Source of the DNA: Cyanophora paradoxa CCMP329 | Taxonomy: Eukaryota; Plantae; Glaucophyta | Direction of reading: 5' to 3' | Length of the DNA stretch: 64,000 nt | Assembly (NCBI GenBank): GCA_004431415.1 | Contig: QPMI01000109.1 | Coordinates: forward strand, 1-64,000 | Shown here: positions 1 to 17,562 of the stretch, in pieces | Layout: each line of letters begins with the position of its first letter | Numbering within the stretch: the stretch's first letter is position 1 | The notes under the pieces: generated by a model | The model's database searches: none | The model's input: the letters and a program-made list of their open reading frames with translations, nothing else | Told to the model about the DNA's origin: nothing | Position numbers and translations under genes: made by a program

Positions 1-1324
1 AGCCAATTCCTTTGTATATATTTTTATAGCTGCCTCAGTGGCATACTGAGACCGCTTTTGCTCAATTATCTTAATAGACCTGGGGGTCCATTGCTACTAT
101 CAGTAGGCAAATAATATTTAATCGGTCTCCCTCTGGGTCTCTGCTCCTCTTTTTGGGCTTTTCTGCGATAATAGGATGCCAGGGCTTGCTGCTTTTTATA
201 CTCTCTATATGCTGGGTCCTCTCTAATATCGTTTCTGCATTGCCAGAATGTGTCTTATAGACCCTCAGTAACAGGTTCATCACTGGTAAACTCGATTAAA
301 CTAATAGTGTCCTCCATTTATATTCCCAGAGAAAACGTTTTCTGCTGGCAAAGAACTTCTCCTTGGATACTCCTGTTGCTCATATGTATACTCTGTGGGG
401 TCTGCTGGCATTGACTCCAACAGAAACTGTTGACTCCTTCTCTCTCTTGCTTCTGATACATTATCCTCAGTATCTGACATCTCAAACTCTATTGTTGTCT
501 CACAGCATCCACTGTGGCAATTGCTCACCACATGCAGACTGAACATCTCAAACTTTCGTATTATATCCATTCTCTAATAAAACAGAGAAAATTAAAGCCA
601 AACTCGTCTTTTATATACTGTGGGGCTACTCCCTTTTCTACTTCAGCTTTGGTGGCACCAGGTTCAATGGTTCCCTTTTGGGTCTTTGTTTTCATTTCAT
701 CTACTGCCTGCTCATCGATTTGGGTCTCTTTCTTAGCAATAAACTGTTTATCTGGGACACCAGTAATACCCATTTTATAAACTTCCTTTCGAAGCATCTC
801 CTTTAGCTTAGCTCTCTCTTTCTTCTCAGTAACATACTGCTCCAAGGCACTGGATTTGGCTTCCAAGTCTTTGAGTTTAGCAGTCATCTCATCCCATTGA
901 GCCTTGGGAATTCGATGAATATTTTGAGTGGGAGCAGTCTTATATGTGACTTCACCAGCCATAGACTGGATTACCTTGTCTGATTCCTTACTAAGACCTT
1001 CACCTTTGCGAGCCAATGACAGATCTTGCAAGCCTAAACCTTTATCATCAGCAGCACCAATAATTCGCCTGGCACCCTCAGCAACAGCTTTCATTTTCGA
1101 AGCTTCAGGTGAGATGTTGAGTTGGTCACTGGTTGAAGCTTGTGGGGCTTTGTCATCGACTGATTCCTCATAGGCAGCATTAAGAGGGTCCTCTTCTTGC
1201 TGTGAGGGCTTTACCTCATTCATACATTGAACTTCAGTGGATCTGTGTTAATGGATCCATTGTTTCCACCACCTGAATAGCCAACAGCCCCAGCTGGAAT
1301 CCCTATCTTTCGTTTGGGAGGCAT
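1..1324 (-). CDS. Hypothetical viral Lys/Glu-rich protein, split by frameshifts, probably runs off the left edge
   Basis: ATG at 1324 (MPPKRKIG...) is preceded by the TAAAG motif. ORF pieces 561-1223, 301-570 and 71-283 abut in different frames. No recognisable domain; joining the pieces is inference. Confidence 0.45.
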
Positions 1325-1352
1325 TGTATCTTTATTAGAATGAGAGATAATT

Positions 1353-2132
1353 TTATAAACCGCGTTTATATCGCATCAATTTATTGCTATGGACTTGGCT
1401 TTTCACTTCTTTGGGGGCTTCCTCTTTTTCTGGTGGTTTCAGTTCATCCTCTTTCTTTTTTGGCTTCCTGTGGAAGCGAGGAAATGGGAAATCTTTCACA
1501 AGCTCAGCTTTATCTACATAGTATTTAACTGAGTAGTTTGCAGAGGACAAATGATATATTGATAGGAGTGAACATACTCTTCAAACATCTTGTAGAAATC
1601 CTCTTTATTTCGCATTATATTGTATTCTTCCTCTATGGCTTCAAGTTCTTTGCGATTAGCAGCACTGAGAAACATAGCATAGTCAGAATTAACTCGAATA
1701 GTCGACGAGACTTTCCTTAGCTTTTGTGTGATGCAGATAATGGATATTTTCGAATGGCGACCTCTGGAATACAGAGATCCGATTATTTTATCCCTTGTGA
1801 GATCGACTATCTCATTATCGATTAAATCATCTAAAACTACACATAACTGGTTAACAGGCTCACCCTTTTCTATTTTCTCTTGCCTCTCATCTAGCAATTT
1901 AGCAATGTAAGGGCATCCATTTTCCCAGTTGCAGTGTTGCCACTTTATCCCAGAAATGATTGAAGCTGGTTCCACTCACAACTAAAACAACATCAATCTT
2001 TTTGGCATCATGTAACTGCTTTAACCAATACTTTACAGCTTCTGATTTACCAGTGGCTGATTTCCCGATTGCCAATACACGAAATGGTGGTTCTATCATT
2101 TCACCAGCATTAAATTCTTCCAGATCATTCAT
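1353..2132 (-). CDS. A32/FtsK-HerA-type genome packaging ATPase (about 2 frameshifts)
   Basis: Walker A GKSATGKS in the 1899-2132 piece. Walker B VVLDD, SRGRH arginine-finger motif and 'ICITQ...IRVNSDY' in the 1514-1975 piece, typical of Pox_A32-like ATPases. Confidence 0.9.
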
Positions 2133-2197
2133 TGTTGTATATCTTTCTACATAAAGACAGATAAAAATAATGCAGGGAGACTGAAAATCGTAACAAT

Positions 2198-3566
2198 CTA
2201 CAAATTTATACGACGTAATCCATCTTTGTCTACAATTATGAACGAATGCATGAGAGCGCGAACATTAACATCGATTACCTTATCTGAAGGCATGTAGAGG
2301 GTGAGGAATGAAGAGGAGGAATTTGTTAAATCAACATAACCAGACTGGGCAATATTTCGAATCGCCTTTTCTCCATCAAGGCAGAAAGGCAATCCTGAAA
2401 GGACATAGCGATCAGCAACCTTATCCATGTTAGAGCATTTGAAGGCATCAGCAATTAGCTCAGCACCTTTGAGTAGGGAAATTGGCTCAGTGGCAAAAAG
2501 TCGCTGACCATTTATTTCAGTTGTAAATGTTATGTCTTTGGAGTTGGCATAGGTCTTAAGAACACTGTGGGAGCCATTGGATTTGTCAACAGTTGCATTA
2601 TCACGAACTGAAACAAGCAGAGCATATACAAGACCTGAGATTTGAGAGAGGTTAATTCGATTGGGTTGGGCATTGCCCTTAGCAGGGAAAGCAATAGCAT
2701 CAACAAATCCAATATCAAGGAGGGAATAGCCATGCCAGTAGTCTTAACTTTTTCAATTACAGTAGCGAAAAGCTCATCAGAAACATTAATAGCATGCATA
2801 TAAAGGCGAGGAGAAGTAATTGAAATTTCAGGAGTTGTTGCACCAAGAGTAAAGTCTGTGATGTTTTGACCAACATTTGCCAGAACAGTTTCAGCAGGGG
2901 CAGTTCCAAGACCATCATCTTTTGAATAATCTACATCAGCTGCTGCAACAGTAAGACCACGACCACCATAGGATGTTTCAACATAGCCTTTTCCAACATC
3001 CTTAAACCAAACAGTAACAACCATTTCACCAGATAAAGCACCAAGGGGAAGGTAGTGATTTAGCCAAGGCACTGGAATTTCAACGAAAAATGAGCCACCA
3101 AGTCGGTTGGTTCCATGAGCAGGGATGCCATGAACCATGCCCATTGATCGTTTCTTTTTAGCTAGTTGATCCTCCGAATAATAGACCAGGGGGAAATGAG
3201 CAAGGAAATCAGATGGAATATGGTAGGTGTAAGATCCATAGGTAATTTCAAGTCGCTGAACTAAAGCACCAACTGGGCGAGTGTATCCATTGCGAACTAG
3301 ATCAGTATCACCAGCAAAAGTGATAGCTGGAAGGTCAAAAGCAAGTTCGAGTTTTCCACAGAAATTGTAGCGAGGTAGCTTGAAGGAAATGCGATTTCCT
3401 ACATTATTTGTGAAAGTATTACTAGGATTCACAACAACTAGAACTGGCTTAGACTTGGATTCGAGACCAAGCATAAGGGAGTTATCCAGGAAAAAGGCTT
3501 TCGCCTCTCTGGGGTTGTTAGGGCTTCTTTCAGCGAAAGTCTTTGAAGAGTGGAAGTGATATCCAT
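2198..3566 (-). CDS. Double-jelly-roll major capsid protein, NCLDV-like signature (several frameshifts)
   Basis: 'GNRISFKLPRY..LELAFDLP..VGALVQRLEITYG' and 'FFVEIPVPWLNHYLPLGALSGEMVVTVWFK' parallel the NCLDV MCP N-terminal motifs. About 455 codons, adjacent to the ATPase. Likely start is ATG 3566 (MDITST) after TAAAAG. Confidence 0.78.
2250..2363 (+). repeat. 114-bp exact direct repeat, copy 1 (within MCP 3' end)
   Basis: Identical base-for-base to 5303-5416. Confidence 0.97.
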
Positions 3567-3619
3567 TATATTCTCTTTTATTATACTGCAACATAAAAAA
3601 TCTACCAATGATCCTTAAT

Positions 3620-16473: not shown

Positions 16474-16523
16474 TGGGTTTCTATAATGAATTTCTAAAGG
16501 ATTCCTTTGTTTTCTAACAATAA

Positions 16524-16588
16524 CATTGATAAGCTACTGTAACAAAAAGATATAATATATCCTTTCACTACAGTAGCTTTATACAATG
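16524..16588 (+). terminator. Stem-loop downstream of the last viral gene
   Basis: Perfect 11-bp stem AAGCTACTGTA (16531-16541) / TACAGTAGCTT (16569-16579) with imperfect extensions on both sides. Function inferred. Confidence 0.45.
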
Positions 16589-16934
16589 ATTATTTTCCGG
16601 ATTCCGGACATTTTTTACGATAGAATTCTATTGTAAGTAATTGGAATAATGTTCGATTTCATTACAGTAAAACTCAACATTCCCCTAGATTCCCCCTATT
16701 ATATAATATTTATATTAAAGTGGACTCTAGGTTGACTCATATTAATCGTAAAAGTAGTAATAGTATATGGATTTTGTTACGAATTCAATGCAAGGGTTGA
16801 CTAAGTGGGTTGAGTTGACTCAAATTTCACAGGAAATAACAATGAATCAGAGTATAAAATGCATTTTTTGAATCAACTACACCAACTAACACTGAGATTT
16901 TCACAATATATGAGATCCTTACTGAATATGGTAT

Positions 16935-17025
16935 GTGTCACAGGTGTCACAGGTTTATCCCAGCTCAAGCCCTATAAAGAGTGATTTTCCCTTTCGATGG
17001 GATGGACCTGTGACACCTGTGACAC
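16935..17025. repeat. Inverted pair of tandem iterons (candidate replication origin)
   Basis: GTGTCACAGGTGTCACAGGT (16935-16954) and its perfect reverse complement at 17006-17025. Confidence 0.8.
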
Positions 17026-17279
17026 CCAATTATTCATTAAATTCCTAAGGGTCCCCCCTTAGACTCAATAAAACAATGATAAAAACATATAAGTTTCATG
17101 TATAATTACGATTGAATTCAATAAGAGATCGATTTGTTTTATTTAACAAATGAATCTTTTATGGATCTTAATCGAGTTTAGCGATATGTTTCCGATTAAA
17201 TGAATTAAATTTAATTAAATTTAATCGAGAAAGTACATGAATATAATATCGATTAAATCAATTAACTTTTAGACCAATC

Positions 17280-17562
17280 ACACATAGTAAAATGCGGAGT
17301 TTTAACCAGAGGCAAGATCTAATTGAGATTCAGTTATATTATTCGGAAATATATACAGATTATCGATAGACTCAGTAAGACTAATCGGAAAATAAGAGAA
17401 ATTTACGATAAAATATCGAAAAGAATACAAAATAATCGAAATAAATGAATATTCGATAAGATATACACAGATTATCGATTGATTGAAATAGAATATACGA
17501 GATATATCAACAAAATCAATTAAGATAAGCCGAGGGTTAAAACTCCGCATTTTACTATGTGT
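17280..17562. repeat. Terminal 283-bp unit bounded by a perfect 28-bp inverted repeat
   Basis: ACACATAGTAAAATGCGGAGTTTTAACC at 17280-17307 with reverse complement at 17535-17562, ending exactly at the AT/GC junction. Confidence 0.92.

Follow-up and report, generated by a model that had tools for sequence, protein, structure and literature searches.

A probable high-copy Polinton-like virus with a phage-like fibre module in a contig of the glaucophyte Cyanophora paradoxa

Gene content of the element

The analyzed window comprises 64,000 nt of Cyanophora paradoxa CCMP329 DNA (contig QPMI01000109.1, positions 1 to 64,000). Its first 17,562 positions form an AT-rich block (overall GC about 0.40) that contains genes for an A32-like packaging ATPase, a major capsid protein (MCP), two penton candidates, a patatin-discoidin lipase, five fibre-like proteins, and an S-adenosylmethionine (AdoMet) decarboxylase. 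This block is one copy of a high-copy family integrated in the host chromosome, most probably the right part of a Polinton-like virus (PLV). The GC content of 1-kb bins is 0.33-0.41 over positions 1-17000 versus 0.50-0.80, mostly 0.53-0.80, over positions 18001-64000, and in 100-nt bins it steps from 0.22 to 0.76 across 17562. At the same position the block ends in a 28-nt inverted repeat (17280-17307 versus 17535-17562, 28/28 nt complementary). The GC bins and the repeat confirm the first-pass annotation of this DNA, which had described an AT-rich block ending sharply at an inverted repeat, and Pfam profile matches (25 open reading frames, or ORFs, of the block were scanned) return the gene order that it had proposed, from the ATPase through the MCP, two tentative pentons, and the lipase to the fibres. 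The features of the block are as follows.

1..17562, no strand: visible right part of an endogenous PLV (GC and CpG steps; depth drop at 17562; left part beyond the window)
1..318, minus: basic ORF in pieces, likely continuing past the left edge of the window (no Pfam, PHROG, or NCBIfam match)
301..570, minus: small acidic ORF (no Pfam, PHROG, or NCBIfam match)
561..1324, minus: Lys/Glu-rich ORF split over two frames, N-terminus basic (no meaningful family match)
1353..2132, minus: A32-like packaging ATPase, frame breaks near 1950 and 1548 (Pox_A32, E 5e-8)
2198..3566, minus: MCP in three pieces (55-63% identity to the intact 456-aa protein P0001; ESM Atlas Capsid_N at 0.98; fold matches of the P0001 model)
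3620..4630, minus: penton (minor capsid) candidate 1, intact (ESM Atlas 0.97, weak by recognition score)
4660..5679, plus: penton candidate 2, interrupted (no Pfam, PHROG, or NCBIfam match)
5299..5416, plus: 118-nt copy of the MCP 3' region (2246-2363), 99% identical, in place of a short stretch of penton candidate 2
5669..7223, minus: patatin-like phospholipase and, after it, discoidin (F5/8C), in what is likely a single fused gene with frame breaks near 6697 and 6022 (Patatin E 2e-18, F5_F8 E 2e-7)
7267..11600, plus: fibre 1, break near 7679 (PTR E 2e-6, H_lectin E 5e-4; tandem repeats)
11620..12674, plus: fibre 2, shared N-terminal domain and C1q-like head, break near 12400 (C1q E 2e-6; alignment)
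12697..13724, plus: fibre 3, shared N-terminal domain and C1q-like head, break near 13690 (C1q E 6e-6; phrog_15750 E 7e-10)
13747..14013, plus: 88-aa protein with relatives in freshwater phages (tblastn, 49 and 42% identity)
14049..14893, plus: fibre-like 4, shared N-terminal domain, break near 14390 (34% identity to the fibre 3 N-terminus; no Pfam match)
14917..15750, plus: fibre-like 5, shared N-terminal domain, intact (36% identity to the fibre 3 N-terminus; no Pfam match)
15773..16045, plus: short CxxC protein resembling the repeat region of phage HNH endonucleases (phrog_681 E 3e-9, phrog_559 E 2e-8)
16075..16473, plus: AdoMet decarboxylase (SpeD), intact (AdoMet_dc E 3e-11; TIGR03330 E 2e-11, under its cut-off)
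16474..17562, no strand: non-coding right end with several hairpins, CpG not depleted (common to many copies)
17280..17307, plus: inner arm of the 28-nt perfect inverted repeat (single contigs cover 16809-17562 and 16809-17555 across the arm)
17535..17562, plus: terminal arm of the inverted repeat, the end of the element (complementarity and contig ends)

The ATPase gene encodes Walker A, Walker B, and RGRH motifs that can be read directly from the sequence, and its three pieces are 76-88% identical to P0007, an intact protein of 261 aa; with an ATPase piece as the query among longer proteins, 1 of 19 candidates was a relative. The identification of two pentons stands in part. Candidate 1 has Atlas matches at 0.97 (recognition 2212), including one cluster with DUF5901 in 13% of its members. 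Candidate 2 has no family match, and its label comes only from what we take to be penton-like motifs; BLASTP similarity between the two candidates is not significant. At the 118-nt MCP piece within candidate 2, contigs of sister copies have other letters at 5305 and 5417, and the piece is either specific to this copy (a template switch) or an assembly error.

The five fibre-like genes occupy 8118/17562 nt (46%), or 37% if the three genes with Pfam support are counted, which agrees with the first-pass estimate that about half of the visible DNA encodes fibres. Fibre 1 is composed of acidic 22-aa repeats, 19-aa repeats, nine 12-aa PTR repeats, and a C-terminal H-type lectin, and the best of the tail and tail-fibre PHROG matches to its 1306-aa ORF has E 6e-16. 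Fibres 2-5 have in common an N-terminal domain of ~130 aa, in which identity to fibre 3 is 34-55%, and are divergent beyond it, two of the four paralogous heads being C1q and two having no Pfam match; fibre 1 shows just 16% identity to the shared domain. The alignment suggests a common docking domain with exchangeable heads. The 88-aa protein encoded between fibre 3 and fibre-like 4 has matches in 3 of 50,697 phage records (tblastn, 42-49% identity). Its match in S-SRM01 is located among tail-fibre and endosialidase genes, and the neighbours of the match in DC33 are mostly unannotated; a role as a fibre chaperone is possible. Both patatin pieces of the lipase are matched by phrog_25573, and SpeD, which adjoins the viral end, has distant cyanophage SpeD matches. 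The domains, the junction contigs described below, the fibre alignment, and the relative in a phage tail cluster support the interpretation of the block as a small DNA virus that has integrated and carries a phage-like module for adsorption. The accompanying suggestion that many fibres would be unusual for PLVs is not supported, since long fibre-like proteins are encoded by most PLVs (Bulzu, 2025, PMC12220804), and phage-like fibres are a common PLV feature.

At the left edge of the window, sister copies have single-base differences from ORF 1..318 at 73 and 225, and both substitutions listed for ORF 561..1324 (2/2) are synonymous. The latter ORF may possibly encode a virion core protein.

Host junction, sister copies, and CpG depletion

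Fourteen DNA runs, all of one organism, contain 76-81% of the words of region 12600-19500. In all three DNA runs compared, a contig passes from 17537 into host DNA at a depth of 98-100 with 0 differences, and one contig from another run stops exactly at 17562. The block is thus joined to single-copy DNA of the protist chromosome in junction contigs with 26 nt on the viral side, a short overhang that may reflect graph branching among many insertion sites. The summed contig depth, which is not a copy number, falls across 17562 from 27,000-71,000 to about 100, and single viral contigs have a depth of 3,600-4,500 versus about 100 for host contigs. The sharp end at 17562 is shared by many sister copies. 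Among the differences between copies, 24 of 27 placeable coding substitutions are synonymous (27 placed from the 40 best-supported of 612 rows, after removal of 10 that belong to a single divergent block and 3 that lie beyond the ORF set), and the element family is therefore, on these sequences, under protein-level constraint. Contigs of two further runs, which we guess to be of RNA origin, align to parts of the block; nothing on expression follows from them.

About a dozen frame breaks are found in the block over 17.5 kb. Sister contigs carry one extra base at five of them (2718, 3506, 6022, 6697, and 7679; 12 of 42 indel rows were used), which affect the MCP (two), the lipase (two), and fibre 1 (one), and 3/5 of which lie within G/C runs of 3-4 bases. 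Low-copy contigs (depth ~4x host) cross the breaks of fibres 2 and 3, over 12103-12689 and 13228-13764, with 0-1 substitutions and one gap each. One frame is open for 1307 codons. Because sister contigs have the extra base at breaks and the low-copy contigs differ by single gaps, most of the frame breaks are likely errors of long-read assembly.

The 301-nt end of the element folds at -51.1 kcal/mol (z -10.8), with 0/100 shuffles equally good. Extra hairpins occur in the non-coding end within 16519-17040, at 16531-16579 and 16935-17025. A terminal ACAC repeat would suit slide-back protein priming. The 283-nt inverted-repeat unit was also considered as a separate miniature inverted-repeat transposable element, which is not favoured, since its flanks differ, no target duplication is seen, and contigs span the unit as part of the end; for the same reasons the inner arm of the repeat likely belongs to the subterminal region as a fixed feature. 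In 2/3 DNA runs, a contig of 988-989 nt at about half of the host depth matches just the stretch 17464-17537, and represents either a truncated copy or another element with the same end.

The observed/expected ratio of CpG equals 0.29 in the viral coding part, 1.08 in the viral end, and 1.16 in host DNA. The loss depends on context (positions 1-16470, both strands), with ratios decreasing from 1.12 for TCGA to 0.63 for TCGC/GCGA, 0.31 for TCGG/CCGA, 0.25 for ACGA/TCGT, 0.05 for ACGT, and 0.03 for ACGC/GCGT. The gradient persists in a synonymous-codon shuffle control, ACGT being found 4 times versus 36.8 expected, and TCGA 108 times versus 96.6. Both the host DNA and the viral end are TCGA-rich. 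The likely cause of the graded loss would be a host methyltransferase with a low preference for TCGA, since CpG methylation of repeats and viral genes is reported in C. paradoxa (Sarre, 2025).

On the host side, ankyrin-repeat coding pieces at 18015-20519 on the minus strand run towards the junction, and the virus may be located in or just past an ankyrin gene. Further along the window, 23967-33267 and 40304-50418 constitute a large nested inverted duplication of host genes with arms 70-97% alike, and a 3.7-kb element at 53233-56912, which is bounded by perfect terminal inverted repeats of 167 nt and contains tandem units of 171 nt, is likely a non-autonomous DNA transposon.

Capsid affinities and the published family

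The MCP has no Pfam or PHROG match, and the Pfam model Capsid_N also misses its relatives P0001 and P0002 at E<=10. In the ESM Atlas, the MCP is matched by Capsid_N clusters at 0.98 with a recognition of 1688 (below the 2300 mark); these clusters, in which Nucleocytoviricota are commonest, hold ranks 1-2, and rank 3 belongs to Preplasmiviricota at 0.97. A profile search of 1.84 billion representatives yielded five matches, two of them true relatives, P0001 (55% identity) and P0002 (39%); P0003-P0005 were dropped as unrelated repeat proteins. Among longer proteins, none of the 3900 candidates was related to the MCP piece, and P0001 found only itself among 7997. Scans of IMG/VR and metagenomes, which require short exact words and are weak evidence, gave no relatives, and sequence searches of PDB gave nothing significant.

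P0001 is an intact 456-aa protein of C. paradoxa that tiles the window MCP in three frames. A single-sequence fold of a window MCP piece (pLDDT 43) had no Foldseek match at E<=0.001. The structural alignment of the P0001 model took in the first barrel only (residues 35-275), which matched capsid proteins of nucleocytoplasmic large DNA viruses (NCLDVs), namely those of faustovirus, PBCV-1, EhV, ASFV, and poxviruses, with Z scores of up to 12.7 (rmsd mostly 3-4.4, ~150-180 residues), compared with 9.8 for mavirus, 9.7 for PRD1, and 8.1 for Sputnik; lower NCLDV rows included one marseillevirus model (8.2) and one iridovirus model (7.2). Foldseek in PDB agrees with these jelly-roll capsid matches. 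In a viral structure library, the first match of the P0001 model is a protein of Tetraselmis virus S1, which we take to be a PLV (rmsd 23.8), followed mostly by NCLDV capsids; most of the named proteins among the 26 matches at E<=0.001 are from NCLDVs, and an adintovirus capsid ranks 32nd. The N-terminal jelly roll of the MCP thus appears modestly closer to NCLDV than to virophage capsids. Of the proposal that the MCP is more NCLDV-like than virophage- or Polinton-like, the part on virophages is supported for this jelly roll of a low-confidence model, by the Z scores and the rank of the adintovirus capsid; a greater likeness to NCLDV than to PLV capsids is only a possibility, a presumed PLV being first in the viral library. 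An NCLDV best match discriminates little, because NCLDV capsids are the best HHpred match for 13/15 protist endogenous MCPs of one table page in Bellas (2023; PMC10120064). A double-jelly-roll MCP (Atlas, fold matches, and HHpred support, with the first barrel alone aligned) and an A32-like packaging ATPase (Pox_A32 and the P0007 alignment) are both present, as in PLVs. PLV genomes span 14-40 kb and have repeats at both ends, and the right end is defined in this element.

The closest relatives are already catalogued. P0001 corresponds to row 106 of Table S2 in Bellas (2023), with an HHpred match of 98.5% to an iridovirus MCP, and C. paradoxa MCP calls in that table are often truncated. Table S4 of the same paper contains 366 C. 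paradoxa MCP hits in clusters of 272 and 94 ("Iterative HMM searches", by our own column count); Cyanophora is not mentioned in its main text. Table S6 of Bulzu (2025), the columns of which were likewise matched by our own count, includes 156 glaucophyte PLVs, among which PF04665 is recorded for 139, rve for 85, lipase for 89, AdoMet decarboxylase (PF02675) for 66, PF03175 for 49, PF08706 for 40, and Pif1-type helicases for 34, with 0 for tyrosine recombinase, protease, and MCP-VIR. Pentons of 15/156 match the NCLDV penton model and 0 the PLV penton model, and the ATPase matches the PLV model in 107/156 and the NCLDV model in 1. The same paper names patatin-discoidin fusions and, for one PLV of C. 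paradoxa, a PTR-PTR-H_lectin fibre; its main text contains neither "decarboxylase" nor "polyamine". The window MCP, with 55-63% identity to P0001, falls with the catalogued C. paradoxa clusters, and the lipase with discoidin, the AdoMet decarboxylase, and the PTR-H_lectin fibre are the accessory set of the Cyanophora/Glaucocystophyceae family. It is thus very likely that the element is a member of the C. paradoxa PLV family counted in these two sets of supplementary tables, and the first-pass suggestion of an undescribed lineage does not hold. The literature searched contained no stand-alone description or placement of this family, which the supplements of Bellas and Sommaruga (2026; 10.64898/2026.06.19.733378) may already place, and no published map of its ends, four-paralogue fibre cassette, or C1q heads.

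The element shares with the C. paradoxa/Glaucocystophyceae PLVs the MCP family, the A32 ATPase, a candidate penton, the lipase, the patatin-discoidin fusion, the PTR-H_lectin fibre, the AdoMet decarboxylase, and the lack of a visible protease; another listed MCP shares long identical runs with the window MCP (by eye), and nothing was shown to differ. Aquintoviricetes PLVs (Gezel-14T, Tetraselmis viruses) likewise have an MCP-penton-ATPase module without protease, phage-like fibres, and endogenous copies, whereas for the MCP of the element no sequence relative was detected beyond two close proteins, and its family uses rve, with tyrosine recombinase in 0/156. Polintoviricetes (Maverick/Polintons, adintoviruses, Gosseviruses) have protein-primed PolB, rve integrase, and phospholipase in common with the family, and C. 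paradoxa contigs were noted to hold divergent variants of the proteins of a virus whose PolB and integrase are adintovirus-like (Starrett, 2021). They may differ in that no Ulp1-type protease was recognized by Pfam among the 25 ORFs of the visible part or recorded in the 156 family members, and in that the adintovirus capsid ranks far below NCLDV capsids. For virophages (Virophaviricetes), which are marked by their own MCP type and a cysteine protease, the Z scores of mavirus (9.8) and Sputnik (8.1) lie ~3 or more below the best NCLDV rows of a weak model, and MCP-VIR is recorded in 0/156. Classification definitions follow Krupovic (2024).

Small viruses with NCLDV-like capsids form the other group for comparison. 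PLV-sized viruses with NCLDV-like capsid modules were described by Bellas and Sommaruga (2026), including RVE integrase in Zora and VC218 and lipase in Zephyr, which has no known host; Cyanophora does not appear in their main text. Zoravirus VC102, VC134, VC218, Zephyrvirus, and VC40 resemble the element in their PLV-scale layout and NCLDV-like capsid signals; in contrast, no Mriya48, HUH, or VLTF3 was recognized in its visible part (no Mriya48 profile was used). Mriyaviricetes (Yaraviridae, Gamadviridae/NDDV) also combine a small genome with NCLDV-like MCP and ATPase, and carry VLTF2/3 and HUH without integration genes (Yutin, 2024; Bellas and Sommaruga, 2026), whereas the element is integrated at high copy and VLTF2, VLTF3, and HUH were not recognized in its 17.5 kb.

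Favoured explanation, alternatives, and significance

We consider it probable that the element is one chromosomal copy of a high-copy PLV-type small DNA virus, the host of which is likely the glaucophyte Cyanophora. According to the family counts, and with the left part of the element outside the window, such a virus would insert by a retroviral-type rve integrase, replicate via protein-primed PolB or a primase-helicase, and use no maturation protease. Judging from the domains, the A32 ATPase would pump the genome into the capsid, the four paralogous fibre-like proteins would likely dock on the pentons via their shared N-terminal domain, and the differing heads together with the lectin-tipped long fibre would bind surface glycans. 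The discoidin-tethered patatin lipase would likely breach the host membrane during entry, and SpeD probably supplies a polyamine precursor. Integrated copies are likely to be silenced by host CpG methylation, and the virus would exit as a fibre-studded particle.

Several points weigh against this explanation. The 26 viral-side nt of the junction contigs, obtained from short reads alone, fall under the 31-nt bridging rule; short reads pool many copies and are no proof that this copy is intact; and the substitutions behind the protein-level constraint are the selected set specified above. The 118-nt replacement in penton candidate 2 is not found in the listed sister contigs, the penton identities are weak, and the P0001 model has a mean pLDDT of 41.6. 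Integrase, polymerase, helicase, left end, and target-site duplication (5-6 bp in Polintoviricetes) are not visible within 1-17562, where one flank only is available, so that insertion and replication are described here on the basis of family counts, and the name of the host rests on viral relatives, not on host genes.

A serious alternative, to which we give rather less than an even chance, concerns the capsid module, which could belong with the PLV-sized Nucleocytoviricota relatives (Zoravirus VC102, VC134/218, Zephyrvirus, VC40) and not with Aquintoviricetes PLVs; the lifestyle that it implies is compatible with the mechanism outlined above. It draws on the two leading Atlas clusters, the Z scores of up to 12.7 versus 9.8 for mavirus and 8.1 for Sputnik, the prevalence of NCLDV proteins in the viral library, the HHpred match of P0001 to an iridovirus MCP (Bellas, 2023), the penton counts (15/156 versus 0; Bulzu, 2025), and the described small NCLDV-like viruses with RVE integrase or lipase (Bellas and Sommaruga, 2026). 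The ATPase counts point the other way (107/156 for the PLV model, 1 for the NCLDV model), as do the third Atlas rank, held by Preplasmiviricota at 0.97, the failure of Capsid_N to detect P0001 and P0002, and the lack of recognized Mriya48, VLTF, or HUH in the visible part. The top match in the viral library is again the presumed PLV Tetraselmis virus S1. The PDB rows behind the capsid scores contain no PLV or Polinton capsid, so the Z contrast is no test here.

The integrity and origin of this copy can be read in other ways as well. It would be a decayed, dead insertion if the dozen or so frame breaks over 17.5 kb were real mutations, in line with the copy-specific MCP piece in penton candidate 2 and the strong CpG loss; we regard this as unlikely in view of the low-copy contigs, which cross the fibre 2 and 3 breaks with 0-1 substitutions but one gap each, the frame open for 1307 codons, and the truncation of published C. 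paradoxa MCP calls (Bellas, 2023), which fits an assembly-wide indel error. An origin of the block from part of an endogenous giant virus (GEVE) is highly improbable: GEVEs are reported in C. paradoxa (Sarre, 2025) and the capsid signals are NCLDV-like, but the defined end is common to many copies, the ATPase-MCP-penton cluster is compact, the family counts include rve and protein-primed PolB (Bulzu, 2025), and the ATPase and MCP are the only giant-virus core genes recognized in 17.5 kb. Least credible of all is a chimeric assembly or a contaminating virus, as the abrupt composition step and the 26 viral nt of the junction contigs might suggest; the same join occurs with 0 differences at host depth in 3/3 DNA runs, and 76-81% of the words of 12600-19500 recur in 14 DNA runs from a single organism, although the runs may not be independent.

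A more far-reaching, and doubtful, proposal is that the family represents a glaucophyte-specific lineage in which a capsid of Nucleocytoviricota type is combined with a polymerase and integrase of Polinton type, and which resides as many copies under protein-level constraint in an alga that can be cultured. It would then be a host-linked, inducible member of a continuum from PLVs to giant viruses, with swappable fibre heads on a shared docking domain and a TCGA-sparing CpG loss left by a long co-evolution with the host methyltransferase.

The anatomy given by the first-pass annotation is right, its claims of novelty were overstated, and its NCLDV-like placement of the capsid is a possibility. 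Small viruses with giant-virus-like capsids bear on the origins of giant viruses, and for several of these groups the host is not known. If the family is placed among ordinary PLVs, the element is one more copy of a catalogued family, and its value lies in a readable gene map and the graded CpG signature. If it is placed with the NCLDV-related set, a culturable alga with many apparently functional copies would be at hand for tests of induction, particle structure, and entry.

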